NCBI GenBank assembly: GCA_044892525.1
Contig: CM097885.1
Location: 2,606,001-2,670,000 of the forward strand
Source: Schmidtea polychroa
Lineage: Eukaryota
Reading direction: 5' to 3'
Length of the DNA: 64,000 nucleotides
In this document: piece by piece, positions 3,001 to 55,531 of the stretch
How positions within the stretch are numbered: position 1 is the stretch's first letter
Layout of the letters: the number at the start of each line of letters is the position of its first letter
Translations under genes and position numbers: made by a program
The notes under the pieces: generated by a model
What the model was told of the DNA's origin: nothing
Seen by the model: only the letters and a program-made list of their open reading frames with translations
Database searches by the model: none

Positions 3001-6000
3001 ACTGCCTTACCTTCCCTATCTGATATCACTGCCCATATCTTCCCTATCTGACATCACTGCCCATATCTTCCCTATCTGACATCACTGCCCATATCTTCCC
3101 TGTCTGATATCACTGCCCACATCTTCCCTATCTGATATCACTGCATATCTTCCCTATCTAATATCGCGGCCCATATCTTCCCTCTCTGATATCGCTGCCC
3201 ATATCTTCCCTATCTGATATCGCTGCCCATATCTTCCCTATCTGATATCACTGTCCATATCTTCCCTATCTGATATCGCTGCCCATATCTTCCCTATCTG
3301 ATATCACTGCATATCTTCCCTTTCTGATATCACTGCCCATATCTTCCCTATCTCATATCACTGCCCATATCCTCCCTATCTGATATCACTGCCCATATCT
3401 TCCCTATCTGACATCACTGCCCATATCTTCCTATCTGATATAACTGCCCATATCTTCCCTATCTGATATCACTGCCCATATCTTCCCTATCTGATATCAC
3501 TGCATATCTTACCTATCTGATATCACTGCCCATATCTTTCCTATCTGATATCACTGCCCATATCTTCCCTATCTGATATCACTGCATATCTTCCCTATCT
3601 GACATCACTGCATATCTTCCCTATCTGATATTACTGCCCATATCTTCCCTATCTGATATCACTGCCCATATCTTCCCTATCTGATGTCGCTGCCCATATC
3701 TTCCCTATCTGGTATCACTGCCAATATCTTCCCTATCTGATATCACTGCATATCTTCCCTATCTGATATCGCTGCCCATATCTTCCCTATCTGATATCAC
3801 TGCCAATATCTTCCCTATCTGATATCACTGCATATCTTCCCTATCTGATATCGCTGCCCATATCTTCCCTATCTGATATCGCTGCCCATATCTTCCCTAT
3901 CTGATATCACTGCCTATATCTTCCCTATCTGATATCACTGCATATCTTCCCTATCTTATATCACTGCCCATATCTTCCCTATCTGATATCAGAGCAAATC
4001 TTCCTTATCTGATATCACTGCCCATATCTTCCCTATCTGGTATCACTGCATATCTTCCCTTTCTGATATCACTGCCCATATCTTCCCTATCTGATATCAC
4101 TGCATATCTTCCCTATCTTATATCACTGCCCATATCTTCCCTATCTGATATCAGAGCAAATCTTCCTTATCTGATATCACTGCCCATATCTTCCCTATCT
4201 GATATCGCTGCCCATATCTTCTTTCTCTGGTATCACTGCCCATATCTTCCCTATCTGATATCAGAGCAAATCTTCCTTATCTGATATCACTGCCCATATC
4301 TTCCCTATCTGATATCGCTGCCCATATCTTCTCTCTCTGGTATCACTGTCCATATCTTCCCTATCTGATATCACTGCCCATATCTTCCCTATCTGATATC
4401 ACTGCCCATATCTTCCCCATCTGATATCACTGCCCATATCTTCCCTATCTGACATCACTGCCCATACCTTCCCTATCTGATATCACTGCCCATATCTTCC
4501 CTATCTGATATCACAGTCCATATCTTCCCTATCTGATATCACTGCATATCTTCATTATCTGATATCACTGCCCATATCTTCCTTATCTGATATCACTGCC
4601 CATATCTTCCCTATCTGATATCACTGCCCATATCTTCCCTATCTTATATCACTGCCCATATCTTCCCTATCTGATATCACTGCCCATATCTTCCCTATCT
4701 GATATCACTGCCCATATCTTCCCTATCTGATATCACTGCATATCTTCATTATCTGATATCACTGCCCATATCTTCCCTATCTGACATCACTGCCCATATC
4801 TTCCCTATCTGATATCACTGCCCATATCTTCCCTATCTGATATCACTGCCCTTAATTTCCCTGTCTTATATCACTGCCCTTATCTTCCCTATCTGATATC
4901 ACTGCATATCTTCCCTATCTGATATCACTGCCCATATCTTCCCTATCTGATATCACTACCCATATCTTCCCTATCTGATATCACTGCTCATATCTTCCCT
5001 ATCTGATATTGCTGCCCATATCTTCCCTATCTGATATCACTGCAAATCTTCCCTATCTGACATCACTGCCCATATCTTCCCTATCTGATATCACTGCCCA
5101 TATCTTCCCTATCTGACATCACTGCCCATATCTTCCCTGTCTGATATCACTGCCCACATCTTCCCTATCTGATATCACTGCATATCTTCCCTATCTAATA
5201 TCGCGGCCCATATCTTCCCTCTCTGATATCGCTGCCCATATCTTCCCTATCTGATATCGCTGCCCATATCTTCCCTATCTGATATCACTGTCCATATCTT
5301 CCCTATCTGATATCGCTGCCCATATCTTCCCTATCTGATATCACTGCATATCTTCCCTTTCTGATATCACTGCCCATATCTTCCCTATCTGATATCAGAG
5401 CAAATCTTCCTTATCTGATATCACTGCCCATATCTTCCCTATCTGATATCGCTGCCCATATCTTCTCTCTCTGGTATCACTGCCCATATCTTCCCTATCT
5501 GATATCAGAGCAAATCTTCCTTATCTGATATCACTGCCCATATCTTCCCTATCTGATATCACGGCATATCTTCCCTATCTGATATCACTGCCAATATCTT
5601 CCCTATCTGATATCACTGCCTATATCTTCCCTATCTGATATCACTGCATATCTTCCCTATCTGTTATCACTGCATATCTTCCCTATCTGATATCACTGCC
5701 CATATCTTCCCTATCTGATATCACTACATATCTTCCCTATCTGATATCACTCCCCATATCTTCCCTATCTGATATCGCTGCATATCTTCCCTATCTGATA
5801 TCACTGCCCATATCTTCCCTATCTGATATCACTGCCCATATCTTCCCTATCTGACATCATTGCCCATACCTTCCCTATCTGATATCACTGCCCATATCTT
5901 CCCTATCTGATATCACTGCCCACATCTTCCTTATCTGATATCGCTGCCCATATCTTCCCTATCTGATATCACTGCATATCTTCCCTATCTGATATCACTG

Positions 6001-9000
6001 CCCATATCTTCCATATCTGATATCACTGCCCATATCTTCCCTATCTGATATCACTGCATATCTTCTTTATCTGACATCACTGCCCATATCTTCCCTATCT
6101 GACATCACTGCCCATATCTTCCCTATCTGATATCACTGCCCATATCTTCTCTATCTGATATCACTGCCTATATCTTTCCTATCTGATATCACTGCCCATA
6201 TCTTCCCTATCTGATATCACTGCATATCTTCCCTATCTGATATCACTGCCCATATCTTCCCTATCTGATATCACTGCATATCTTCCCTATCTGATATCAC
6301 TGCCCATATCTTCCCTATCTGATATCACTGCCCATATCTTCCCTATCTGATATCACTGCCCATATCTTCCCTATCTGATATCACTGCATATCTTCCCTAT
6401 CTGATATCACTGCCCATATCTTCCATATCTGATATCACTGCCCATATCTTCCCTATCTGATATCACTGCATATCTTCCCTATCTGATATCACTGCCCATA
6501 TCTTCCCTATCTGATATCACTGCATATCTTCCCTATCTGATATCGCTGCCCATATCTTCCCTATCTGATATCACTGCCAATATCTTCCCTATCTGATATC
6601 ACTGCATATCTTCCCTATCTGATATCGCTGCCCATATCTTCCCTATCTGATATCGCTGCCCATATCTTCCCTATCTGATATCACTGCCAATATCTTTCCT
6701 ATCTGGTATCACTGCATATCTTCCCTTTCTGATATCACTGCCCATATCTTCCCTATCTTATATCACTGCCTATATCTTCCCTATCTGATATCACTGCATA
6801 TCTTCCCTATCTTATATAAATGCCCATATCTTCCCTATCTGATATCACTGCCCTTATTTTCCCTATCTTATATCACTGCCCTTATCTTCCCTATCTGGTA
6901 TCACTGCCAATATCTTCCCTGTCTGATATCAGAGCAAATCTTCCCTATCTGATATCAATGCCCATATCTTCCCTATCTGATATCACTGCCCTTAATTTCC
7001 CTATCTTAAATCACTGCCCTTATCTTCCCTATCTGGTATCACTGCCAATATCTTCCCTATCTGATATCAGAGCAAATCTTCCCTATCTGATATCAGAGCA
7101 AATCTTCCTTATCTGATATCACTGCCCATATCTTCCCTATCTGATATCGCTGCCCATATCTTCTCTCTCTGGTATCACTGCCCATATCTTCCCTATCTGA
7201 TATCAGAGCAAATCTTCCTTATCTGATATCACTGCCCATATCTTCCCTATCTGATATCACGGCATATCTTCCCTATCTGATATCACTGCCAATATCTTCC
7301 CTATCTGATATCACTGCCTATATCTTCCCTATCTGATATCACTGCATATCTTCCCTATCTGATATCACTGCATATCTTCCCTATCTGATATCACTGCCCA
7401 TATCTTCCCTATCTGATATCACTACATATCTTCCCTATCTGATATCACTCCCCATATCTTCCCTATCTGATATCGCTGCATATCTTCCCTATCTGATATC
7501 ACTGCCCATATCTTCCCTATCTGATATCACTGCCCATATCTTCCCTATCTGACATCATTGCCCATACCTTCCCTATCTGATATCACTGCCCATATCTTCC
7601 CTATCTGATATCACTGCCCATATCTTCCCTATCTGATATCACTGCATATCTTCATTATCTGATATCACTGCCCATATCTTCCCTATCTGATATCACTGCC
7701 CATATCTTCCCTATCTGATATGACTGCATATCTTCCCTATCTGATATCGCTGCCCATATCTTCCCTATCTGATATCACTGCCTATATCTTCCCTATCTGA
7801 TATCGCTGCCCATATCTTCCCTATCTGATATCGCTGCCCATATCTTCCCTATCTGATATCACTGCCCATATCTTCCCTATCTGAAATCACTGCCTTACCT
7901 TCCCTATCTGATATCACTGCCCATATCTTCCCTATCTGACATCACTGCCCATATCTTCCCTATCTGACATCACTGCCCATATCTTCCCTGTCTGATATCA
8001 CTGCCCACATCTTCCCTATCTGATATCACTGCATATCTTCCCTATCTAATATCGCGGCCCATATCTTCCCTCTCTGATATCGCTGCCCATATCTTCCCTA
8101 TCTGATATCGCTGCCCATATCTTCCCTATCTGATATCACTGTCCATATCTTCCCTATCTGATATCGCTGCCCATATCTTCCCTATCTGATATCACTGCAT
8201 ATCTTCCCTTTCTGATATCACTGCCCATATCTTCCCTATCTCATATCACTGCCCATATCCTCCCTATCTGATATCACTGCCCATATCTTCCCTATCTGAC
8301 ATCACTGCCCATATCTTCCTATCTGATATAACTGCCCATATCTTCCCTATCTGATATCACTGCCCATATCTTCCCTATCTGATATCACTGCATATCTTAC
8401 CTATCTGATATCACTGCCCATATCTTTCCTATCTGATATCACTGCCCATATCTTCCCTATCTGATATCACTGCATATCTTCCCTATCTGACATCACTGCA
8501 TATCTTCCCTATCTGATATTACTGCCCATATCTTCCCTATCTGATATCACTGCCCATATCTTCCCTATCTGATGTCGCTGCCCATATCTTCCCTATCTGG
8601 TATCACTGCCAATATCTTCCCTATCTGATATCACTGCATATCTTCCCTATCTGATATCGCTGCCCATATCTTCCCTATCTGATATCACTGCCAATATCTT
8701 CCCTATCTGATATCACTGCATATCTTCCCTATCTGATATCGCTGCCCATATCTTCCCTATCTGATATCGCTGCCCATATCTTCCCTATCTGATATCACTG
8801 CCTATATCTTCCCTATCTGATATCACTGCATATCTTCCCTATCTTATATCACTGCCCATATCTTCCCTATCTGATATCAGAGCAAATCTTCCTTATCTGA
8901 TATCACTGCCCATATCTTCCCTATCTGGTATCACTGCATATCTTCCCTTTCTGATATCACTGCCCATATCTTCCCTATCTGATATCACTGCATATCTTCC

Positions 9001-12000
9001 CTATCTTATATCACTGCCCATATCTTCCCTATCTGATATCAGAGCAAATCTTCCTTATCTGATATCACTGCCCATATCTTCCCTATCTGATATCGCTGCC
9101 CATATCTTCTTTCTCTGGTATCACTGCCCATATCTTCCCTATCTGATATCAGAGCAAATCTTCCTTATCTGATATCACTGCCCATATCTTCCCTATCTGA
9201 TATCGCTGCCCATATCTTCTCTCTCTGGTATCACTGTCCATATCTTCCCTATCTGATATCACTGCCCATATCTTCCCTATCTGATATCACTGCCCATATC
9301 TTCCCCATCTGATATCACTGCCCATATCTTCCCTATCTGACATCACTGCCCATACCTTCCCTATCTGATATCACTGCCCATATCTTCCCTATCTGATATC
9401 ACAGTCCATATCTTCCCTATCTGATATCACTGCATATCTTCATTATCTGATATCACTGCCCATATCTTCCTTATCTGATATCACTGCCCATATCTTCCCT
9501 ATCTGATATCACTGCCCATATCTTCCCTATCTTATATCACTGCCCATATCTTCCCTATCTGATATCACTGCCCATATCTTCCCTATCTGATATCACTGCC
9601 CATATCTTCCCTATCTGATATCACTGCATATCTTCATTATCTGATATCACTGCCCATATCTTCCCTATCTGACATCACTGCCCATATCTTCCCTATCTGA
9701 TATCACTGCCCATATCTTCCCTATCTGATATCACTGCCCTTAATTTCCCTGTCTTATATCACTGCCCTTATCTTCCCTATCTGATATCACTGCATATCTT
9801 CCCTATCTGATATCACTGCCCATATCTTCCCTATCTGATATCACTACCCATATCTTCCCTATCTGATATCACAGCTCATATCTTCCCTATCTGATATTGC
9901 TGCCCATATCTTCCCTATCTGATATCACTGCAAATCTTCCCTATCTGACATCACTGCCCATATCTTCCCTATCTGATATCACTGCCCATATCTTCCCTAT
10001 CTGACATCACTGCCCATATCTTCCCTATATGATATCACTGCCCATGTCTTCGTTATCTGACATCACTGCCCATATCTTCCCTATCTGATATCACTGCCCA
10101 TATCTTCCCTATCTGACATCACTGCCCATATCTTCCTTATCTGATATCACTGCCCATATCTTCCCTATCTGATATCACTGCCCATATCTTCCCTATCTGA
10201 TATTGCTGCCCATATCTTACTTATCTGATATCACTGCCCATATCTTCCCTATCTGATATCACTGCCCATATCTTCCCTATCTGATATCACTGCCCATATC
10301 TTCCCTATCTGATATCACTGCCCATATCTTCCCTATCTGATATTGCTGCCCATATCTTCCCTATCTGATATTGCTGCCCATATCTTCCCTATCTGATATC
10401 ACTGCCCATATCTTCCCTATCTGATATCGCTGCCCATATCTTCCCTATCTGATATCACTGCATATGTTCCCTATCTGATATCACTGCCCATATCTTCCAT
10501 ATCTGATATCACTGCCCATATCTTCCCTATCTGATATCACTGCATATCTTCCCTATCTGACATCACTGCCCATATCTTCCCTATCTGACATCACTGCCCA
10601 TATCTTCCCTATCTGATATCACTGCCCATATCTTCTCTATCTGATATCACTGCCTATATCTTTCCTATCTGATATCACTGCCCATATCTTCCCTATCTGA
10701 TATCACTGCATATCTTCCCTATCTGATATCACTGCCCATATCTTCCCTATCTGATATCACTGCATATCTTCCCTATCTGATATCACTGCCCATATCTTCC
10801 CTATCTGATATCACTGCCCATATCTTCCCTATCTGATATCACTGCCCATATCTTCCCTATCTGATATCACTGCATATCTTCCCTATCTGATATCACTGCC
10901 CATATCTTCCATATCTGATATCACTGCCCATATCTTCCCTATCTGATATCACTGCCCATATCTTCCCTATCTGATATCGCTGCCCATATCTTCTTTCTCT
11001 GGTATCACTGCCCATATCTTCCCTATCTGATATAAATGCCCATATCTTCCCTATCTGATATCACTGCCCTTAATTTCCCTATCTTATATCACTGCCCTTA
11101 TCTTCCCTATCTGGTATCACTGCCAATATCTTCCCTATCTGATATCAGAGCAAATCTTCCCTATCTGGTATCACTGCCAATATCTTCCCTATCTGATATC
11201 AGAGCAAATCTTCCCTATCTGATATCAGAGCAAATCTTCCTTATCTGATATCACTGCCCATATCTTCCCTATCTGATATCGCTGCCCATATCTTCTCTCT
11301 CTGGTATCACTGCCCATATCTTCCCTATCTGATATCAGAGCAAATCTTCCCTATCTTATATCACTGCCCTTATCTTCCCTATCTGGTATCACTGCCAATA
11401 TCTTCCCTATCTGATATCAGAGCAAATCTTCCCAATCTGATATCAGAGCAAATCTTCCTTATCTGATATCACTGCCCATATCTTCCCTATCTGATATCGC
11501 TGCCCATATCTTCTCTCTCTGGTATCACTGCCCATATCTTCCCTATCTGATATCAGAGCAAATCTTCCTTATCTGATATCACTGCCCATATCTTCCCTAT
11601 CTGATATCACTGCCCATATCTTCCCTATCTGATATCACTGCCCTTAATTTCCCTATCTTATATCACTGCCCTTATCTTCCCTATCTGGTATCACTGCCAA
11701 TATCTTCCCTATCTGATATCAGAGCAAATCTTCTCTATCTGATATCAGAGCAAATCTTCCTTATCTGATATCACTGCCCATATCTTCCCTATCTGATATC
11801 GCTGCCCATATCTTCTCTCTCTGGTATCAGTGCCCATATCTTCCCTATCTGATATCAGAGCAAATCTTCCCTATCTTATATCACTGCCCTTATCTTCCCT
11901 ATCTGGTATCACTGCCAATATCTTCCCTATCTGATATCAGAGCAAATCTTCCCTATCTGATATCAGAGCAAATCTTCCTTATCTGATATCACTGCCCATA

Positions 12001-35777: not shown

Positions 35778-37650
35778 TTAATTTAATTTCAATCGCTTCT
35801 CGGTTGGCTGGGATTCTTGATCGAGATCGGTATCGATCTGCTCGGTAGCCGCCTGTGTTGCCGGTGGCATCACGATCACCATCGGTGGGGGTGGAGGTGG
35901 TGGGGGAGGCGCGATTTGCGATACCGCCTGTGAGATGATGGGAGTGTTGACAATAATTGTGATTGTGGGGGCAGGCATCACCTGGGGCACCGCCTGCGGA
36001 CCGATCCGATCCATATCTGCTGCTGCCGCCGCCTCCTTCTTGTCGTCCCCGCGGGCCGTTCCCCCCATATCGGATTGCCTAGAGATTAATGGTTCCTGCG
36101 TCGCGGCGTGACCGTCCCAGATATATTTCTCACCCTTCTTAGCGTCCTCCTCTCCTACCTTCCGCCCGATTACCGTTTCCTCGATACCGAATATATCCGT
36201 TCGACGCTCCGCCATCATTTTCAGATTGTAATCGACATTCGGGCCCGATGTGAACGGCGTGTCCTCTTGCGATTTGTTCTTGGTGTTGCGGTCTCGGTGC
36301 TCTCGCCACGAGGGGTTCAATAGGCCAACATGAATGTGCTGATTGGCTTGGCTCGTCGTGATCTTCTTGTTATCGCCGAGTGGTGAGATCAGGAACACCT
36401 GGATGGAAACGGACAAATAAACAAACAAATATCATTGGACTAATTGCAAAACGGAACATAGTAAAATGAAAATAAATTACTTCATCATTTTGTTTCTTAG
36501 ATTTCGCTTTCGGATCGTAAGGTTTAATGAGGACTTCTTCCGGTTTGATAAGATTTGTTCTAGCTGCATCGCTTACAGGCTGTTTGAATGTTCCAGTTGA
36601 ACCAAGCGGCATTGGTGGAGGAGGAGCAGGGATTGAATCTTCCTCTTCATCACTCACCTCCATGTCTTCCACTTCCATGTCATCGTTTTCCTTATCACCA
36701 TGAACATCAGTTTGACGAATTTTCTCTTCTTCAATTTCTTCCTCTTCTTCTTCCTCAACTTCTTCTTCTTGTTGTGTTTTATTATCTTCAATCCACCTAT
36801 TAACAACTTGTTCTCCTCTTTCTTCAGCAATCGCTCTTGCTCCAACCTCTTCTGGAATTGTAGGTGGGGGAAAGTTTCCAACTTCATTAGGTTGATAATC
36901 TACCATTTCCACAACAACAAAATCATGCCAATCAATTTGTCCATAAGCAACCCTTTCTTTGTCTTCAGCCTCCATTTCCTTTTTACGCTGCCTTGCCTGA
37001 TACCGATCCCAGGATACACGATATTTACAATTTTTCATGAATATTTCTGGGCTTTTTGATTCTTTATTAAGTTTTTCAATGATATCATTTGGAGGTAACA
37101 AAATTTTGGTAAATTGTTCAACAAGTTTGGTGAAATAACTGAACATATTGTGCTGAGGACGCAAGAAATCAAATAAATAATTACGTTGCTCACGATTCAT
37201 GAGCTGGGTTAAAAATTGTCTGCCATTTCGTGCTACAAATTGAGCTGTAAGTCTTACAATATCAAGCTCCAAACTATTAATACTCGGAGGGTCAACTATA
37301 AATTCAAATTCTGCTGGTGTTTCCTTGGGTTCAAAAACTTCTTGAATAGCTTTAGGTGTGTCTTGAGCCAATTTCATGGCTGTAGGAACTGAAACATTAG
37401 CAGAAATAGATTCAACTGTACCCTCAATACATTGCTTAACTCTTTGATTATAATAAGGATTGTAAGGGTCAAGAGAATTAAGAAAGTTAAATTTGGGATT
37501 ATTAGCTTCATTTATTTTAACCCTTGCTTCAAAATCAGGTCCATTTCGAGCAACAAATTCTGCCGTTCGGTCAACAATATTTCTGACATCTGGTGGCGGA
37601 ATTATTACACCAAATTTTGGTGCAATGTGCTCTGGTTCAGTTATAGTCAT
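35778..37650 (-). CDS. SF3A1: Splicing factor 3A subunit 1 (Prp21/SAP114), about 596 aa; exon 1 37650-36481, 82-nt intron 36480-36399, exon 2 36398-35778
   Basis: Two SURP domains (IVDRTAEFVARNG; IVRLTAQFVARNGRQFL), PRP21 motifs IDWHDFVVVE and MAERRTDIFG...IWDGH, and a phase-0 GTAATT...TCCAG intron that joins the two ORFs in frame. Confidence 0.95.
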
Positions 37651-40604: not shown

Positions 40605-41367
40605 TGTTGGTAGCAGTATTAGGAAATGCCAATAGCTGTTGCGAAAGGCAAGAATCCAGGAATCCAAATAAAATCAATATATTGTAAAGTTATCGAAATT
40701 GAATTGGTAAAACGGGAGAGGTATAGATTAGCTGATGGTCAGCAATATAATGATTAGGGATTTATCAGAAAATGGTTAGAAATGGTCGAAAAGCATTCGA
40801 GTGTGTTAAAACAGAAAATCGTTAATTAATTAATTAATTGACTAATAGAAAACCCGAGCTAATAGGAAACCCGAGCTAATAGGAAACCCGAGCCAATGGA
40901 GAACCCGAGAGATGAAGGAAACCCAAGCTCAATTAACATGAAAAGTAAACAAAATGAGAATCTCGGAAGACCATCATCACGACAGCATGATTTTTTGGAC
41001 TATTACGAAGAAATAGCAGAGGCAGCCAATTAGCCATGATATGGTGAAAACAGCGTTCAACGAGCCGGTTGTCAAACCATTGTCAGATAGGAGCAACCAA
41101 TCAAAAACTGATTAATCATAGTGATTAGTCCAGTATAAAAGCAAAGTCGAAATTCAAAATAATTGGCAATTTGCCTCAGCTAGAGTTAGAAGAAAACGAG
41201 AATAAACAAACGCTAAAGGCGAAATAAGGAGATTAGGGAAAAAGGAAATATAGAATAGGAGATACGAAAAAGTGAAAAGGAATCAAATCAAATAGAAAAA
41301 GGAAAACGTTGGTCAAGAGAAGCCAAGAAATAAAAAGGTGAATATTATCTTTTGTCAAAGCATCAAC
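40605..41367 (+). mobile_element. Possible solo or truncated LTR containing a short about 17-bp tandem repeat (GGAAACCCGAGCTAATA, about 40847-40930)
   Basis: Begins TGTTG and ends near CAACA, with TATAAAA at about 41134 and downstream AATAAA. TSD is not convincing. Confidence 0.3.
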
Positions 41368-42207
41368 AGTAGTGTGGTTATATACCCAACCAAAACAGCC
41401 CCCCAACAAAAACATGCCTCCAAATCACTTAAGCTATTAGAAAAACAACCTAAAACTTATACTTTTATAGTATTTTAACCCTATATTTTGAAAACAACCA
41501 CCCTTAATGACTCTAACTGTTTTAATCTTTAAAGCCTCAAACTCAAAAGCTTCAAACTAAAAAGAGAATAGAAAAGAAAATGGCATTATGAAAAAGTTAG
41601 AGGGCTATTTGATCTTTATCAGATTATTGATTTTAAATTATATAAATTAAAAAATAAATGAAAAATAGTAAAACTGCTCTGAGGGGACAGTGGTATTTTT
41701 TTTTTTTTTTTTCACTGTCCCCTCAACAGTTTTTTTTTGATCCGGATCATTTTTTTTATTTATCAACCTCTTTCGTTTATCGAATCTCTTCCAATATACA
41801 AGCTGGCCAGACTCATACATCAGAATCAATCCGATAATAGCAGCACACCTTATTATTCGCTTCTCGCTCGAATACGATTTCATCGGCGTTTTAAGTGTGC
41901 TGCTCGAAAGTACAAATGAATTCGAAAGCGAATCCGAAAGAGGTCCGAAAACAACTGAGAAATAAATGTGCACATTACCGGAATCGATCCGGGGGTGTTC
42001 GAAAGACAGGTGGCGATAATTACCGGTTCGCCACCATCACCCGTTTCAATATTTTTTTTTTCATATTTATGTTTAAAAAATAATTAATTAATAAAAAAAT
42101 AAAATAAAATAAAATAAATAAAATAAAATATACAAGTACTTTATAAATATAAGATACCCACACTATTTTCAATATTATTTTCAAATTTTTAATATTATTT
42201 TATGTTG

Positions 42208-42288
42208 AAAAAAACTAACCACAGTTAGGATTTGAACCGCTATCCATTTGAACCACTGTGCCGGTCTAGCCCACTGCGCTATCTAGGA
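42208..42288 (-). ncRNA. Pol III tRNA-like unit A (second copy at about 54876-54957)
   Basis: A box TAGCGCAGTGG, B box GGTTCAAATCC starting 43 nt later, T7 terminator. Confidence 0.5.
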
Positions 42289-42535
42289 TTGGATTTTTGT
42301 CATTTTTTAGACTATAAATAATCGATTCAAGTTCTTTAACTCTTTCCTGTAATTGTTTCATTTTCTTCAATCTTATATCAGCAACATCTACAGCCTTCAT
42401 ATAAAAATGTCGATACTTTTCATTATCTACCATCAACTCTTTGATGTATTCTAATGGTTCTTCTTCTCTTCTTCTCATTCTTTTATGTTTAACTTCATTC
42501 AATTCATTTCTCATTCTTTCTTTTAACTCATCCAT
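42266..42535 (-). CDS. Small coiled-coil Polinton protein (89 aa)
   Basis: Preceded by TTTATAAAAATG like other genes of the element; charged heptad-like sequence. Confidence 0.55.
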   Translation of the reverse strand: MDELKERMRNELNEVKHKRMRRREEEPLEYIKELMVDNEKYRHFYMKAVDVADIRLKKMKQLQERVKELESIIYSLKNDKNPILDSAVG

Positions 42536-42696
42536 TTTTATAAATATTTTTTTATTGGATATATTAATTTTTGGTAGCTTAAGTTAAAACGTTTTTGATC
42601 TTAAATTTCCAAGAGTTGCCGTTGACCAATCTCCTTAAAAATTTGTACAAGTACTAAATCGAGTATGCTGATCAATATTTCGTTAAAAAAAATTTG

Positions 42697-42778
42697 AAAA
42701 AAAATGACCGAAATGGGATTTGAACCCATTGGTATTGGCAATGCAGTCGAGTGCTATTACCACTAAGCTATTAGAGCT
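42697..42778 (-). ncRNA. Pol III tRNA-like unit B, 5' half resembles tRNA-Cys (second copy at about 55117-55198)
   Basis: TAGCTTAGTGGTAATAGCACTCGACTGCA, then a perfect T-arm ATGGG-TTCAAAT-CCCAT and a T8 terminator. The anticodon stem does not pair. Confidence 0.55.
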
Positions 42779-42938
42779 ATACTCAATATAAAATAAGTTG
42801 TTAATGTGTGACTATTTATTGATGAAATTAATAATTAATTATTCATTTTCTCGACAAGTACCACTCAGATCGATCTGAAAATTTAAATATATACTAAAAT
42901 CAGTACGCTGAATCAGATTCCGTTGAAAAAAAAATATC

Positions 42939-43020
42939 GAAAAAATTGACCAAAATCGAAAATTGAACCCGGTACTCCCGGTGATAAAATTGAAGCCTAT
43001 TCCCACTCCGCTATAATGGC
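42939..43020 (-). ncRNA. Pol III tRNA-like unit C
   Basis: A box TAGCGGAGTGG, B-box-like GGTTCAATT 44 nt later, partial acceptor stem GCCATTA/TTTTGGT, T-run terminator. Confidence 0.4.
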
Positions 43021-43076
43021 TTACATAATATATTTAATTAATCCTATTTTGTGTGTGTAAATTTTAATATATAAAA

Positions 43077-44358
43077 ATGAATAATATAAAAATTCAAGAA
43101 AAAAATAAATTAAATCTTGATTATAATAAAGAATTTACTCATGAAATCAAGAAAAACGATGTACTTAAAATCTCCCCAACTTCAGGATCTATTGCAAACT
43201 TAAATCGTAGGGGTGATATAGTTTTTCAATCTCTTCAAACATCAAACCCTATAGATATTTGTAATGCCAAATTATATTATAAAATCGAATTAGAAATTGA
43301 AGCAAACAAAGATATAACCCTAGAAAATAATTTCTTTCCAAATTTATTCTCCAACATGAGATTAAAACTAGGATCATCAGAAATTGAAACTGTTTTGCAT
43401 CCGGGAGTATATTCTACAATGTTAAATTTTATTTTGACAGGTTATGATTATAAAAACGAATATGGTGAATTAACAGGTTGGATTCCTGATGTTAATAAAG
43501 GGGATTTAGATAAAGATGGTTTAGATGTAAACCATGGTTACCATAAAAGAGCTGAACTTTATAAATCTAAAAAATTTGAAGGTTATTTTGAATTAAAACA
43601 CTTATTTGGATTCCTTCAAAACTATAATCGTATATTTCATAATGTTTTTATAGAATTCATCTGTAATAGAGTAGAAGGTGATAAAAGATTGTTCTATGGA
43701 GCTGTAGATACAAAAGCTAAATTAAAATTATCAACACTTGAATTACATATACCTGAATGGACATTAAACCCACATTCTGAGATTAAACTCCTTGAAAGAT
43801 TAAATTCCAACAAGTCTATAAATGTAAATTATTTAAATAGAATCTGTAGGGAATTTAGTATGACAGAGGGTTCAACATATTCTATAAAGGTAGCAAATTT
43901 AGCATACCGACCAAGATATATCTTGATTGGATTCAAAGAAGTAGATTCATCTTTCCAAAAAAATAACAACTTGTTTATTCAAAAGATTGGAGTTGATAAT
44001 TTAAAAACAAATTCAATTAAATAGTTCTTATTATCCAATAAATAGAATGGAATTTAATATTGAAAATAATGAAAACATATTCCCATATCTAAATTATATT
44101 GAAACATGTTATGATTTCAAAGTTGAACCGCAATTAAGTTTAGAAGATTTCAAAAATTTATATTCTATATTTTGTATAAATGTTTCAGACCAAGATGATC
44201 GCCTAGCCATAAATAATGTTGATGTTACACTTCATGTAACAAAGGATTCTAATTTTAAAGCTAAAGTATATACATTAATATTAGAAGAAAAGAAAATAGA
44301 AATGAAATTATATGGTGGAAAGATTTCAATAATCGAAAATGTTAGGGGAGATTCTTGA
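43077..44358 (+). CDS. Polinton major capsid protein (double jelly-roll), frameshifted at about 44005
   Basis: Motifs LENNFFPNLFS, ELKHLFGF, PRYILIGF, QLNSSYYP and YSIFCINVSDQ. The +1 frame after the A-run at about 44003-44007 reads KQIQLNSSYYPINRMEF directly into ORF 44047. Confidence 0.8.
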
Positions 44359-44387
44359 TATAATCTCTGATATTTTAACATTTTAAA

Positions 44388-46552: not shown

Positions 46553-46713
46553 AGTTAAATCCATCTTTAGATCCATCTTTAAATTTGCAGCAAAAATCTC
46601 GAAACTAACAATATATATTTAATCAAAGAATTTCTAAATAACAAGTTTTAATTAATTCGCAAAACCGCCAATTCCAAATTATTTAAACAAACAGATATCT
46701 AACTCTCCCCTTC

Positions 46714-49700
46714 TTAAGAATTTTTCCACTTCTTCAGCCACTCGATTCTTCTTTCTTTCGTTCCTTCTTGTGAATGTAGTTCGACTCGATGAGGTGATAG
46801 AAATCTGGCGATTTTATATGGGCCATCGTATTGCATACCATCCTTGTGCCTGTTCTGCGGCTCTTTACGTACGAGTACCTCCTCCCCCACCTCGAAAACA
46901 CGAGTGCCCCTCTTTGTCTTATCCATGGCTCTCATAGTGTCTGCGGCTTTACTCGAATTAAATCTCGCGTCTTCGATTCTTTCGCTTCTTGATATCTCGG
47001 CTTGTTTCAGGTTAGAGTGTAGGTTAACACTCCGTCCATAGATTATCTCAAATGGTGATAAACCTGTAGCACTTTGTCGACTGCTATTTATAGTGAACTC
47101 TATTCTGGGTAGAAGTTCGTGCCAGTTTCTCTCTTCACATCCGCCTGCCAATGTTGCTGTAATAAGATCTCTTATCGTTCGTATGGCTCTTTCGGCTAAA
47201 CCATTTGATTGGTGCTGATAAGGTGAGCTGAATTCCTGTTTGATTCCAAGTTTCTGTAGCTTCTGTCTTAAAAAATTCCCTTCGAAATTTCGGCCTCTAT
47301 CTGTTAAAATGCTCTTCGGTTTTCCAAATCGATAGATCCAACTATTAAGTATTGTTTTGAAAATGGTCCCTTCGTCTTGCTTTGTGATTGCAGTTAAAGA
47401 AATCAGTTTGCTAAAACGGTCCACCATTACTACCATATATTTTTTCATGGCGTTTATTTCCATGTAAGCCACATCTAAAACAATCTGTTCTAGGAATTCA
47501 GAGCTATATCTAGGAATAAATGTTTCCTTGGTTTTTGTCTGATCGATCTTTCTCTTAGCGCAGATCTCGCAACATCGTAAACAGAGTTGGATTGTTTCTT
47601 GCATTTTCGGCCAATAAAATATCTTTTCCATATAATGAAATAATTTCTTAACTCCAATGTGACATAGTTCTTCATGTAGTGTTGTTGTTAACAGGCCTGC
47701 AAATGTTTCTGGGACTAACATTAAGATATTTTTGTTCTTTTCTACTGTTATTAATCCTCCATCAATTCGTGTATTTTTTACGTTAAAAGGAAAACAATTC
47801 TTTTTCTCCCGTGTACATCCATTTTCCAATATCTCTCGCAGCTCTTGAAACCGAATGTCCTTTTGTTGTTGTTCCCATACTTTTTCCATAGCTTCTGTTC
47901 TTTGGATAGTATATATATATCTAATCTTTGATTTTCCTTGCTTAGCTTCTTCATGTCTTGTTTGACACTGGGTGCAAATCATACTTTTTAATCTTGATAG
48001 TCCATATGCATTCGAGTGTTCTTCTCCTTTCCGATATTTTAGTTCAAAATCATATTCCGACAGGTTAGCTAACCATGTTTGGAACTGCGGACTGATTGGC
48101 GTTTTTGTAGTGTTCATGAAAACCAATGCCTTGTGGTCGGTGCGAATTATGAATTTTTTTTCCGTACAGATATTCTCTAAAATGCATGACGTATTCATGT
48201 ACGGCGAGCAGTTCTTTCCTGGTTACACAGTATCCCTTTTCATGTGATGACATATGTCTCGAGCCATAAGCTATGACAGATTCTTCTCCATCTTCTGTAA
48301 TTTGACTCAAAACTGCACCAATGGCTCCAAAACTAGCGTCTGTGTCTAAGATAAAAGTCCTATCTTCTCTTGGAAAATCAAGGATAGGTGCTTCGCACAA
48401 CCGTCTCTTCAGAGTTTGGAAGCTCTCATTGCATTCTTTAGTCCAATTTATATCTTTATCGCATCCAGATGTTGCAGCGTATAATGGTTCGGCGATTTTG
48501 GCATAGTCTTTGATGAATCTTCTATAGTAGTTCGTTAATCCGAGAAACGATCTCAATTGTTTTGAACATTTTGGTACTTCTGCTTTCTCAATCTCTTCCA
48601 CTTTCTTCCTGTTTGTCTGGATACCCTTCTCGTTAATTGTGTGACCAAGGAAACACAATTCTGTTTTATTGAATTTGCATTTTTCTGGATTTATCTTCAG
48701 TCCTGCCACTTGAATTCTTCTGAATATTTCCCTTAATAGCTCATCGTGGTCTTTTTGACTTTTACCATATACCAAGATATCATCTAGATAAACTACTACT
48801 CCCTTGAATAGCATTCCTTCTAGCACTGTGTGCATCAGTCTCTGGAATGTCGCAGGAGCTGTTGCTAAGCCAAATGGTAGTCTATTGAAGCAAAATTGTC
48901 CTTCTCTTGTACTGAATGCAGTCATCTCTTGAATTTCTGGAGCTAACTCCACTTGATAATACGCCTGACCTAAATCGATTGACGAAAATATTTTTGCATT
49001 CGCGAGACAGTCTAGTAAGAATTTGGTGTTAGGCATCGGAAATGACTCTTTTTCTGTTATGGAATTTAATCCACGATAATCTACACACATCCTGATAGAT
49101 CCATCTTTCTTCCCTACTATCACTAACGGGGCATTCCAAGGACTCTTGCAACACCGAATAACATTTGCTTTCATTAACTCTTTTATCAGTTCTTCAATCT
49201 TTTTCTCCATGTGCATTGGTTGACGTCGAGGATGTTGCATTATTGGGCCTCCTGTTATCCGCATCTCATGTCGAACTAAGTTTGTAAATCCCAGATCGAA
49301 TTTCGATGCCATAAAAATTCCGCCGAATTCCCTGATCATTCCTTCAATATCTTTATTATTCTCACCTGCCATTGCCACTAGTGCTTTATTTATTCTTTCT
49401 TCATCAGTGTAAATTTTGTTTATCAATGACGTTTCTATATTATTGATTTTCATTAACTTTACTCCAAACTCTTTCATTGTATCAATGCCCCCTATGAATT
49501 CGGGTTTGATCTCTTTTACCACTACTACTGTGATCATTTTGGTCTTCTGATTCCACGTGGCCGGTATAGTCATGTATCCCATTGCTTCTTCACCTCCAGT
49601 TGAAAAAACTCCGCACAATAATATCATACAACGTTTAAGTTCTGGTTTGCCTATTTTCTCCCACAAATTCTTGCTCATAACTGTTACTGATGCTCCAGAA

Positions 49701-49870
49701 TCCCATAACATCTCTGTTTCGGCATTATTCAACATTATTTTACTCCAATTTCTTCCATCTTTCGTCTGGTACATCTCTTCTTCTGCCTCGTCTCTTCGTT
49801 GTTCATTTCCTATTTCACAATTTATTGTCTTGACTCCACCGACGAAATGAAACCCATGGAGTCGCTGATG
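46714..49870 (-). CDS. pol: Gypsy Pol (aspartic protease, RT, RNase H, integrase), frameshifted at the T8 run 48154-48161
   Basis: WDSGA, RMCVDYRGLN, YLDD, DTDAS, TDHKAL, HHCC zinc finger, D-D-E and GPY motifs across ORFs 48065-49774 and 46714-48198. Confidence 0.95.
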
Positions 49871-51125
49871 TTTTTCCGTCTTCTCTCAATATAGTATATT
49901 TCTCAGGGACATTGTATCTATCTTCCATATTGCTGTGATCCATTCTGAAATCCTGGCTGTTCTCGGTGTAATCTCTTGTTTCAGATTTTGAATCTTCTTC
50001 TATGCACGCTATTCTTTGATATCGTTGTGGAACATCTTTCCGTAACGAAAAACAATCTCGGAACCCGTGTCCTTCCTTGCCACATATCAGACATTTATTT
50101 CCCAGTGGACACTCATACCTTCTATGTCCCCTTTCGCCACAGCAAAAACAATCACCTACCGTTAATTTTGGGACCGATGCTTGTGGTAGTCCCCTACTTT
50201 CATTGTACAGCCTCCTTGCAATATTCTTCATGGATATTGTTGGCAGCTTCCTTTCTGAGCTATTCGGGATTCTCGCATTTCTCAAGAATTGTTGTCTTGG
50301 AGATTGTTCTCGACGACCATGGTTATTTCCTTCGTATTGTATTGGTCCGCGTATAGGATGTTCGTCTCTTCTTGATCTGTGGTGACTAAATTGGTCCTCT
50401 GGTAGTCTTCTTTGTGATGATGTATGCATGGGATCTTGGGTATTCTTTTGAATTCTCATCTTCCCTCCCTCAGTCACGCTAGCGTATGTTCTTTGACCGA
50501 TTGCTTTAATAAATTCTGTTTTATGGTTTCCATTTTTGTTACTTTCAAAAATTTTCGCCAATGATCTCGTTTCTTCAATTTTTGTTTCTGGTTTCGTCAA
50601 TAGTATCTCTCTCAGTCTCGCATCGCGTGCTTTATTTGCGATGAGATCTTGAACAATATCTTCTTCTGATCGTCCTGAATTTATAACTTCAGCTAAAGCT
50701 TTCCTTAGCCGTATTTCAAAAGCTGCAAACCTTTCATCATCTTCCTGTTCCATAGCTGCCAATTCTCTGATTTTGTCAGTTATTGATTTTGTAATTGTGA
50801 ACGTATTTAAGAACCACGCTTTGGCTTTTACATCTGTTGTTTCTGTTTCTCTGACGTTTCCCAACAATGTCTTTGCTTCTGCCACTAATAACACATCGAA
50901 AGTGCTTGTCAATCGCTGTCCATTTGTCAGCAACCATTCTTCTATATCCCTGATCCATTCTTCGGCTTCTTTTAAACCTCGTCCATCATATCGTCTGATG
51001 TTCAATGTGAGCATGTCTTGGCATGATTTCGGTAGGCATTCCATTAGCGATTTTGTCGATTTTGAAATGGCGTTGATATTTTGATTTTCGGCGTGGTCGC
51101 CAGTTAAATCCATCTTTAGATCCAT
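49815..51125 (-). CDS. gag: Gypsy Gag with two CCHC zinc knuckles; start codon lies inside the 5' LTR
   Basis: CFCCGERGHRRYEC and CLICGKEGHGFRDC; capsid-like YDG...EEWI and QEDDERF motifs. Confidence 0.92.
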   Translation of the reverse strand: MDLKMDLTGDHAENQNINAISKSTKSLMECLPKSCQDMLTLNIRRYDGRGLKEAEEWIRDIEEWLLTNGQRLTSTFDVLLVAEAKTLLGNVRETETTDVKAKAWFLNTFTITKSITDKIRELAAMEQEDDERFAAFEIRLRKALAEVINSGRSEEDIVQDLIANKARDARLREILLTKPETKIEETRSLAKIFESNKNGNHKTEFIKAIGQRTYASVTEGGKMRIQKNTQDPMHTSSQRRLPEDQFSHHRSRRDEHPIRGPIQYEGNNHGRREQSPRQQFLRNARIPNSSERKLPTISMKNIARRLYNESRGLPQASVPKLTVGDCFCCGERGHRRYECPLGNKCLICGKEGHGFRDCFSLRKDVPQRYQRIACIEEDSKSETRDYTENSQDFRMDHSNMEDRYNVPEKYTILREDGKTSATPWVSFRRWSQDNKL

Positions 51126-51253
51126 CTTTAAATTTGCAGCAAAAATCTCGAAACTAACAATATATATTTAATCAAAGAATTTCTAAATAACAAGTTTTAA
51201 TTAATTCGCAAAACCGCCAATTCCAAATTATTTAAACAAACAGATATCTAACT

Positions 51254-52766: not shown

Positions 52767-53162
52767 ATGACTCCTTCAATATTAGATTTTTTAAAAACAT
52801 TTGGAATAAATGCAAAAACAAATTTTGATTTAAAAGATTATGCAAATTATTTAAATTTAAAAATTAAAATATTAATGAATGATGAATTATCAAGTCTGGA
52901 GAGTCCCCTGAATATAATAATCAATTATCAAAATTCAAATGAAAAAGGATCTCATTGGGTTTGTATATATAAGAAATCTATCTACTTTGATTCTTTTGGG
53001 ATTAAACCTACTAAAGAAGTTGAAGATTATCTCTTGAGGGGTTCTCCGATTGATTCCCCAAATGGTTATACTTTTAACTCTTTACAAGTTCAACCTTTGA
53101 ATACTAAAATATGTGGTATTTTAAGTTTATATGTTTTGTATAGATTGAATAAGGGAGAGTAG
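52767..53162 (+). CDS. Adenain-like cysteine maturation protease, C-terminally truncated (native tail at about 55412-55483)
   Basis: GSHWV, YFDSFG and QVQP...ICG catalytic motifs. The duplicated 3' part continues ...NKGEGKGHTQDFESIIQEIYNDLESLL*. Confidence 0.88.
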   Translation: MTPSILDFLKTFGINAKTNFDLKDYANYLNLKIKILMNDELSSLESPLNIIINYQNSNEKGSHWVCIYKKSIYFDSFGIKPTKEVEDYLLRGSPIDSPNGYTFNSLQVQPLNTKICGILSLYVLYRLNKGE

Positions 53163-53403
53163 TGAGGAATCTATGCACCCCAGCACCCCCACCCTCAAAA
53201 AAAACAGCGCTATTGACCCATATTTTCCACATTTATATGCTTTTTTACCCCATATTCTTCACTTTTTTTAACTTTTAAACTTTGTCACCTATTGCCATTA
53301 ACCCTTAATTTCTTCCCTTAAAAGTAAAAAAGTTCGGAATAGATGTATTTATAGATTAGTAATTCCGAGAAAAGGTAACGGGGTGCATAGATTCCTCACT
53401 ACT
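53158..53403. mobile_element. 246-bp element with perfect 24-bp TIRs beginning AGTAGT (mini-Polinton-like)
   Basis: AGTAGTGAGGAATCTATGCACCCC (53158-53181) and its exact reverse complement (53380-53403). No TSD seen. Confidence 0.7.
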
Positions 53404-53979
53404 TGGTCTTAAGGATTTAATGTTATAAGGATTTAATGTTATAAGAATATCAGATTACCTAATTCATAATGATCTAGGTCGCCTGATCACCTTAAGGTTT
53501 TGAAAGTTTTAAAAATAAAAAATTTTATGAAAATAGTAAAACTGCTCTGAGGGGACAGTGGTATTTTTTTTTTTTTTTCACTGTCCCCTCAACAGTTTTT
53601 TTTTGATCCGGATCATTTTTTTTATTTATCAACCTCTTTCGTTTATCGAATCTCTTCCAATATACAAGCTGGCCAGACTCATACATCAGAATCAATCCGA
53701 TAATAGCAGCACGCCTTATTATTCGCTTCTCGCTCGAATACGATTTCATCGGCGTTTTAAGCGTGCTGCTCGAAAGTACAAATGAATTCGAAAGCGAATT
53801 CGAAAGAGGTCCGAAAACAACTGAGAAATAAATGTGCACATTACCGGGATCGATCCGGGGGTGTTCGAAAGACAGGTGGCGATAATTACCGGTTCGCCAC
53901 CATCACCCGTTTCAATATTTTTTTTTTTCATATTTATGTTTAAAAAATAATTAATTAATAAAAAAATAAAATAAAATAT

Positions 53980-54796
53980 TAATAGAGAAACGCCAACTCA
54001 ATAAATTCAACATAAACGCGATATATTTCAATTGTACAACAATCTTCGTCAGGCCGCAATCTGGATAATCAATAATAAGACATAAAATATGCAATATCTA
54101 AACAAATTAACTAATAATAATCATCTCCAAACTGTATCAAAAATTTAAAAAAAAAAAAAAATATTTTAAAAAAAAATATTTCAAAAAAAACATTTTAAAA
54201 AACCAAACCATATTTTACATAACCCACATACATATTATTTTAAAATTAAATTTTAATTTAATCACATTTAACATTCAACATAAAATTAACAAATTTTAAA
54301 AAAAAATTACATAGTTTACAAAACACAAACATAATTATACCACAAACAAGACTCCCAACCTTCATCCTTCAATTACTTAAACACATTCAAAATCTCCGTG
54401 GAACGGGCAACTTGATCATTTATTTTTGGATTTAAATATCTAATCAACAATGCCTCACAAGTTACTCGTTCCCAATAATTACTTAAACCTTTTGAAATAA
54501 TTTTAAAATCAGAGATACCTATTTTTTTACTGACACATTTCCTAACATGATTACTAATATTAGTCAATCCTTTTGGTCGACAGTGTTCAAGAACTCGGGT
54601 GCAGAGATGACGGGCAGTCTCTCCAATGTATATGGCATTACACCCATTACATGAAAATTGATACACAAGCTCAGAACACAAACCAATTGGCGTTGGACAT
54701 TTACTAGTAAACATACTGCTAACTTTGCAAGAAGTGGAAACAATCCTGAATTGATCCTTGTCTACATATTTGAGAATTTTATGTTTAAATTCTCTG
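53980..54796 (-). mobile_element. 5'-truncated Penelope-like retroelement (GIY-YIG endonuclease 3' end plus tail)
   Basis: LVYQFSCNGCNAIYIGET...RVLEH...EALLIRYLNPKIN; 12-bp TSD AAAATAAAATAT (53968-53979, 54797-54808); empty site visible at about 42120. Confidence 0.88.
54015..54058 (-). ncRNA. Candidate minimal hammerhead ribozyme in the Penelope tail
   Basis: The minus strand reads GCGGC-CTGACGA-A-GATTG ttgta CAATT-GAAA-TATA-TC-GCGT: catalytic core boxes, stem II, palindromic stem III and an AUC cleavage triplet. Stem I is weak. Confidence 0.55.
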
Positions 54797-55531
54797 AAAA
54801 TAAAATATACAAGTACTTTATAAATATAAGATACCCACACTATTATTTTCAAATTTTTAATATTATTTTATGTTGAAAAAAAACTAACCACAGTTAGGAT
54901 TTGAACCGCTATCTATTTGAACCACTGTGCCGGTCTAGCCCACTGCGCCATCAAGGTTTGAATTTTTGTCATTTTTTAGACTATAAATAATCGATTCAAA
55001 TTAAAACGTTTTTGATCTTAAATTTCCAAGAGTTGCCGTTGACCAATCACCTTTAAAATTTGTACAAGTACTAAATCGAGTATGCTGATCAATATTTTGT
55101 TTAAAAAAAAAATTTGAAAAAAAATGACCGAAATGGGATTTGAACCCATTGGTATTGGCAATGCAGTCGAGTGCTATTACCACTAAGCTATACTCAATAT
55201 GAAATAAGTTGTTAATGTGTGACTATTTATTGATGAAATTAATAATTAATTATTCATTTTCTCGACAACTACCACTCAGATCCATCTGAAAATTTCTCCG
55301 ATTGATTCCCCAAATGGTTATACTTTTAACTCTTTACAAGTTCAACCTTTGAATACTAAAATATGTGGTATTTTAAGTTTATATGTTTTGTATAGATTGA
55401 ATAAGGGAGAGGGAAAGGGGCATACGCAGGATTTTGAATCTATAATTCAAGAAATTTATAATGATCTAGAATCTCTACTATAAGGATTTTTACTATAAGG
55501 ATTTTTACTATATGAATTTACTACTAAAGAA

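Follow-up and report, generated by a model that had tools for sequence, protein, structure and literature searches.

Small RNAs made from type 2 RNA polymerase III (Pol III) promoters are known from adenovirus and from gammaherpesviruses (PMC8223928). The VA RNA of adenovirus is transcribed from an internal type 2 promoter in a viral gene, and the TMERs of murine gammaherpesvirus 68 carry such a promoter in a tRNA-like head that is followed by hairpins, with several units in a row (PMC8223928). Pol III-type genes have likewise been reported from elements related to Polintons: Polinton-like viruses yielded 558 tRNA matches in 8300 genomes (PMC12220804), and tRNA genes occur in MELD viruses, in a paper whose accessible text contains the term "VA RNA" 0 times (PMC8502044). 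Those genes were annotated as tRNAs and taken to serve codon supply, whereas the units that we describe here, U1 to U4, are not intact tRNAs. A further known layout is that of BC1-like and SINE-type Pol III RNAs, which consist of a tRNA-like head, a body, an A-rich tract, a 3′ hairpin and a U tail. A sequence-only reading of the present locus was aware of no description of its units in Polintons; we found no report of such a Pol III RNA module in the accessible parts of the open-access literature.

We analysed a window of 64,000 nt (the whole stretch of DNA under study) from a 781-Mb genome. From 41368 onward, the window holds a Polinton whose genes, by Pfam, comprise a double-jelly-roll capsid, a PLA2-like/rve integrase, an A32-like ATPase and a pPolB. 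The double-jelly-roll capsid, rve, ATPase, pPolB, PLA2-like gene and terminal repeats identify the element as a Polinton, or alpha-type adintovirus, the PLA2-like gene being a mark of the alpha class (PMC8502044). The left terminus (41368..41600, plus strand; the end of the terminal unit is approximate) starts with AGTAGTG and was common to 29 out of 29 other copies fetched, which aligned from 41365-41383 onward at 96-98% identity. The family comprises about 3,000 young copies, with capsid searches of the genome listing 3009-3322 candidates. The major capsid gene (PF21738; 43077..44358, plus strand) is in two pieces here (43077-44024 and 44047-44358); in most listed copies it forms one long frame, unlike the split window copy. 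An 89-aa ORF of unassigned family (42266..42535, minus strand), which at its end runs into the start of U3, had no match in a Pfam search. We fetched 20 loci from 101 capsid-search places, picked for divergence by their unusual frame lengths, and the 89-aa ORF was present in 11 of them. Two distant capsids used as genome queries returned only relatives at 88-96% among the 20 out of 101 places fetched.

Each element end is a unit of about 250-290 bp, opened and closed by inverted, AGTAGTG-led 24-30-mers, and no alignment of these ends was possible between subfamilies with 88-96% capsid identity (41368-41600 and 53158-53404 in the window; L050-L066). One terminal-unit type has 2868 exact matches in the genome. 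A second left end (53158-55411) consists of a terminal unit of another type, then U4, a GIY-YIG Penelope-like fragment (54373-54714), U3 and U2; it interrupts an ORF (52767-53162) and has a 118-bp exact direct repeat on its flanks. A Gypsy-type retroelement (46553-51253) with identical 152-bp terminal repeats is inserted at the start of the ATPase. Outside the Polinton, a 26/28-bp satellite occupies the first 28 kb of the window (1-28500), and an intron-less SF3A1/PRP21-like ORF lies at 36370-37650.

We named the units in transcription order as U1 (43020), U2 (42777), U3 (42288) and U4 (42042). The sequence-only reading had flagged the first three and placed them on the minus strand, upstream of the capsid ORF and diverging from it, an arrangement that we confirmed: the A boxes start at 43013, 42770 and 42281, with GGTTCAA B boxes 43-44 nt past them and then T6-T8 runs. 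All four units show the type 2 internal spacing of A and B boxes and a T-run end, with an internal T4 in U4 that would need read-through. A search for an A box, 31-36 nt and a B box returned seven sites in window 28.5-64 kb (35.5 kb), five of them with a T5 run; 200 first-order Markov sequences gave a chance average of 0.09, or 0.015 when a T5 run was required. The motif is a tRNA consensus that was fixed after the units had been seen. Two of the seven sites were U4 and its second window copy, neither of which had been listed before. The units are indeed not working tRNAs, as had been proposed: ARAGORN made 0 calls, and the stems of U2 are broken. An Rfam search of the units gave no adenovirus VA RNA match, with E allowed to reach 5 or 10, and the tRNA-Lys and tRNA-Arg arrays of the host had no blast match to the units. 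These host tRNA genes form long tandem arrays with periods of 424 bp and 278 bp (L067-L075).

The three flagged units are real and heterogeneous. The module has a mixed origin, with U3 and U4 being the element's own and U1 and U2 host-derived. U1 (42940..43020, minus strand; A box 43013-43003, B box 42969-42961, T6 42945-42940) is a diverged paralogue of U2 (42697..42777, minus strand; A box 42770-42760, B box 42726-42717, T8 42704-42697), a degenerate tRNA-like unit. With flanks, the two gave a local alignment score of 153 against 66.6 ± 7.8 in 300 shuffles, contrary to the earlier view that the bodies of the units are unrelated. Against the Rfam tRNA model (cut-off 29), U2 scored 32.4 bits; its anticodon place reads GCA, and it is presumably Cys-like, judging by the Rfam alignment; three of five anticodon-stem pairs and three of seven acceptor-stem pairs are broken. 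Its second window copy (55118..55197, minus strand) scored 26.7 bits against Rfam tRNA, and the U2 fold had a z of -2.6 relative to shuffles.

Both units sit in a 495-bp cassette (42571..43065, minus strand) that came from the host rDNA spacer. The cassette is 96-98% identical, in the same order, to stretches of rDNA-array spacer on C1 and C115; the host spacer has U1 and at least three copies of U2, and the Polinton has one of each. On C1, U1, the first sub-repeat of the spacer array, lies at 12504 and U2 at 12748, 12991 and 13234, with 5.8S genes at 6917 and 28628. In both arrays checked (C1 and C115), the 243-bp tandem sub-repeat, of which U1 and U2 are paralogous versions, is found on the strand opposite to 5.8S, at a distance of 5.4-6.3 kb upstream. 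From the usual gene sizes, we infer that the matching region is spacer and not transcribed rRNA. Beyond either edge of the match, the rDNA pieces continue with sequence foreign to the Polinton. The end of the cassette and the host flank also occur in a host macrosatellite, at only 82-88%, which argues that the host version is the older one. Among the sampled loci, which were chosen for divergence, the cassette was present in 5 out of 20 and absent from 15 out of 20; from match counts, we estimate that roughly half of all copies carry it. The 89-aa ORF joins the capsid upstream region directly, without the cassette, in 6 out of 20 sampled loci, and the cassette-free joint (42565-43060) was also found in contigs of sequencing runs X1 and X2. 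The genome has 3256 matches to U2 and 2142 to U1; among the 39 U2 matches listed on C1, 35 adjoin U4, and three of the other four lie in rDNA. Given the 96-98% identity to the spacer and the presence in only 5 out of 20 sampled loci, U1-U2 is a recent capture of host rDNA spacer in one lineage. This corrects the lead from which we started, with two of the three flagged units being host rDNA spacer. The sequence-only reading had itself named, as the observation that would count against it, a host SINE absent from other Polinton copies; a host repeat of this kind was found for U1 and U2, with the rDNA spacer and not a SINE as its source, and for U3 none was seen in the rDNA spacer at C1:7-30 kb or in the copy counts.

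The host rDNA spacer is a separate oddity, in that tandem tRNA-like Pol III units lie inside it, antisense to the pre-rRNA (C1:12440-13420; C115:22450-22950). A boundary or spacer-promoter role is possible for them, and our literature search returned nothing on tandem tRNA-like Pol III units in an animal rDNA spacer.

U3 (42208..42288, minus strand; A box 42281-42271, B box 42238-42229, T7 42214-42208) also has an extra GGTTCAAA at 42254. Its second window copy (54876..54957, minus strand) carries the TGG variant of the A box at 54950; this TAG-to-TGG change, noted in the sequence-only reading, is real and belongs to the unit at 42281. Among the 100 U3 matches listed on C1, out of 3062 in the genome, 94 have U4 downstream, and tandem doubling of U3 was seen in 7 out of 100 matches listed. 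We scored variants common to two or more U3 copies as shared. Across 52 copies, shared variants fell at 2 out of 21 box sites, both consensus-compatible, and at 24 out of 58 flank, body and trailer sites (Fisher p=0.007, which is optimistic, the copies being related and some changes linked). The folds of U1 and U3 were no better than those of shuffles, with z of 0.30 and 1.00 for the two. Because its boxes are spared and its fold is no better than shuffles, the boxes of U3 seem to matter and its RNA body seems not to. Selection on boxes with a free body, as originally proposed for all three units, is thus supported for U3 only. It fails for U1 and U2, whose divergence arose in the host spacer and not in the Polinton, given their match to rDNA spacer and their absence from most sampled loci; almost no inherited variation exists in either unit inside Polinton copies. 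The U3 body and trailer (42221-42263) contain several linked multi-site haplotypes that recombine freely, which is unusual for copies 97% alike.

U4 (41661..42042, minus strand) is a tRNA-headed unit of about 375 nt, with its A box at 42033-42023 and its B box at 41990-41980, the same box spacing (42033/41990) as in U1-U3. Behind the boxes lie the internal T4 (41951-41948), a 25-bp stem (41837-41777), an A-rich tract, a terminal hairpin (about 41731-41674) and T4/T5 at 41673 and 41665. The second window copy (53535..53908, minus strand) lies behind a different terminal unit (53158-53533). The predicted minus-strand fold reached -134.8 kcal/mol (z -8.36), and 0 out of 100 shuffles were as good; the plus strand gave -107.9 kcal/mol (z -5.12). 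A hairpin forms the head of the fold and leads into a multibranch core, whose 25-bp stem with its 7-nt loop is pre-miRNA-like; A runs follow, and a terminal hairpin stands ahead of T4/T5. Neither ARAGORN nor the fold gave a cloverleaf in the head. We also considered 7SL, 7SK, RNase P and known miRNAs, for which U4 had no Rfam match near cut-off.

The predicted U4 RNA resembles VA RNA in being structured, in ending on a U run and in having as its carrier a relative that encodes a capsid and pPolB. It differs from VA RNA, which is about 160 nt long, in its length, in its A-rich tract and in its position at element ends, often twice per element; U4 has no Rfam VA match, and the PKR target is probably absent from the host. 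Compared with the TMERs, the head of U4 forms no cloverleaf, and production of miRNAs from it is putative. U4 is therefore VA/TMER-like in its predicted layout, without being a member of those families by sequence. The idea of a VA-like RNA fits U4 much better than U1-U3, two of which fold like shuffles. Overall, the sequence-only reading is partly supported, being right for one of its three units, wrong for two and better suited to U4.

We looked for conservation of the U4 structure in 44 distinct near-full copies, whose variant counts are not independent events, the copies being related. One double change (41721/41684) appeared as G-C in 31 copies and A-U in 13, and another (41896/41847) as A-U in 31, G-U in 8 and G-C in 5; several G-U swaps in the core stems pair only on the minus strand, which is that of the boxes. 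On the fold of the window copy, shared variants kept 13 pairs and broke 9, compared with 11 kept and 20 broken for singletons (p=0.10), and restricting the comparison to high-probability pairs gave p=0.19-0.25; by either measure the structure-conservation test was not significant. Pair breaks clustered in the T-arm-like helix and one outer helix. A test on the alignment's own consensus fold, in which 8 out of 9 shared-variant pairs were kept, leans towards that fold and was not counted. U4 was 78-98% identical to diverged copies, which is not above the 93-98% of capsid DNA.

Four sequencing runs (three samples, two studies), guessed to be RNA and none on record as such, had contigs over 41370-44369; these contigs give no strand, ends or level, and DNA may be in the runs. 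U4 was partly covered in all four runs, by contigs at 41696-41977 in X8, at 41875-42049 in X9, across the internal T4, and at 41930-42036 in X2. Summed contig depth, which cannot rank parts, had its highest values on U4; it was 5,914-10,422 in X1 and 3,522-23,580 in X2 at 41770-41969, 173 and 1,285 at U3, and 4-20 over U1-U2, where DNA copy number is similar. We regard the cover of U4 as a hint of expression only. X8 and X9 had no contig on U1-U3 or the 89-aa ORF; such gaps carry no weight as evidence, and U-tailed RNAs of 75-80 nt are lost from ordinary libraries. The oligo-T loose ends of X2 at 41750, together with an AATAAA and A runs near 41760, would suit a rival reading, in which a leftward Pol II mRNA with the 89-aa ORF, which lies on the same strand, ends in U4 as a structured 3′ untranslated region, and the boxes are relics. 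We consider this very unlikely: the ORF was absent from 9 out of 20 sampled loci, six of which have U4 or part of it, and U4 has exact tRNA-spaced boxes at the 5′ edge of its fold and a T-run end.

U3 and U4 are confined to the element. Genome matches to the U4 body (3133), the U4 5′ flank (2905) and U3 agree in number with the capsid candidates, and one 5′ flank is common to 60 out of the 66 U4 matches listed on C1. U4 shares the layout of BC1-like and SINE RNAs; unlike SINEs, it is not dispersed alone. The agreeing counts and, among the matches listed on C1, the single U4 flank and the position of U3 beside U4 rule out a dispersed tRNA-derived SINE. Neither U3 nor U4 had a match in the rDNA spacer at C1:7-30 kb or an excess of copies. 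Among 100 U4 matches listed, we found 18 outward pairs 11-16 kb apart and two inward pairs, compared with a random expectation of 0.7 outward pairs and a maximum of 6 in 2000 shuffles; with outward pairs so far above random, many elements must carry the module at both ends. U3 and U4 were each present in 16 out of 20 sampled loci (U4 partial in three of these) and persist beside terminal repeats that cannot be aligned with those of the window. In the other 4 out of 20, neither U3 nor U4 accompanies the capsid gene: L051, L055 and L062, for each of which one element end was read, have an element end there, and L049 is cut. U3 and U4 thus belong to this Polinton family without being universal in it, and they often occupy both element ends in outward orientation.

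Our searches found 21 capsid homologues, and related species have capsids with 50-75% identity. In viral contigs, capsid searches returned 0 relatives and the U4 pattern 0 matches. Six metagenome loci with 30-52% capsid identity showed no box pair or tRNA; most have little upstream DNA, and none has an element end. The metagenomic relative L041 (51% capsid identity) has a long pre-miRNA-like hairpin (3810-3889, minus strand) that scored 48.6 bits (E 2.8e-7) against Rfam mir-754, below the cut-off of 84, with no A or B boxes seen upstream. We take mir-754 to be a planarian miRNA family; it may be of Polinton origin.

Outward placement at both element ends strengthens the insulator alternative, in which all four units act as DNA only, as TFIIIC/Pol III-bound boundaries that shape the spread of piRNA-guided heterochromatin, with RNA as a by-product. 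That U3 keeps its boxes and not its body, and is at times doubled in tandem, is consistent with this. In fission yeast, tRNA genes, as at cen1, and the B boxes in IR-L and IR-R, inverted repeats around a 15-20 kb domain, act as boundaries (PMC2040200, PMC7474672), and planarian Polintons are PIWI-silenced with chromatin effects (PMC8532177). The U3 and U4 boxes differ from the yeast elements in lying on a mobile element, and a boundary role here is putative. As an account of all four units we consider it somewhat unlikely, for it leaves unexplained the very stable, strand-biased fold that takes up 280 nt past the B box of U4.

The captured cassette raises a second alternative, that every unit is neutral cargo, whether from captured Pol III genes or from a dead SINE, and travels with the terminal regions as these are copied between the element ends. 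Such an origin is true for U1-U2, the module is missing in some lineages, and the U4 structure test was not significant. For U3 and U4, by contrast, we saw no host source in the rDNA spacer or the copy counts, no Rfam family reached cut-off on either unit, and shared variants spare the U3 boxes. We therefore think neutrality of the whole module unlikely.

The explanation that we favour, at even confidence, is a Polinton-encoded Pol III module in which U4 acts as an RNA against host silencing and the short units act as TFIIIC-binding DNA. Host TFIIIC would bind the A and B boxes, and Pol III would read past the internal T4 of U4 as far as the T runs near 41670, giving a 375-nt RNA that opens with a tRNA-like head, continues through long stems and an A-rich tract and closes with a 3′ hairpin. 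By analogy with VA RNA and the TMERs, this RNA would most likely serve as an abundant double-stranded decoy or as a precursor of small RNAs, loading the Dicer/Argonaute route of the host, and the outcome would be eased silencing of the element. For U3, with its retained boxes and variable body and trailer, a function as DNA is most likely; it would be a TFIIIC site that keeps the element end and the capsid promoter open. U1 and U2 would be passengers or extra TFIIIC sites. Planarian Polintons are PIWI targets, with effects on chromatin (PMC8532177), and this would supply a motive for an anti-silencing RNA if the host is a planarian. A PKR decoy role is unlikely outside vertebrates, because PKR is vertebrate-specific.

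In its most specific form, which we put forward tentatively and at less than even confidence, U4 would be an abundant tRNA-headed RNA, diced or acting as a decoy, that blunts host RNA silencing; animal Polintons would then encode their own Pol III small-RNA gene, in a family that also collects host Pol III units. If true, this would help to explain the rise of the family to about 3,000 young copies, and the adenovirus VA strategy would have an equivalent in relatives that integrate. Knowledge of Polintons concerns their proteins, and a Pol III unit that is confined to the element and present in about 3,000 copies makes their coexistence with host RNA silencing testable.
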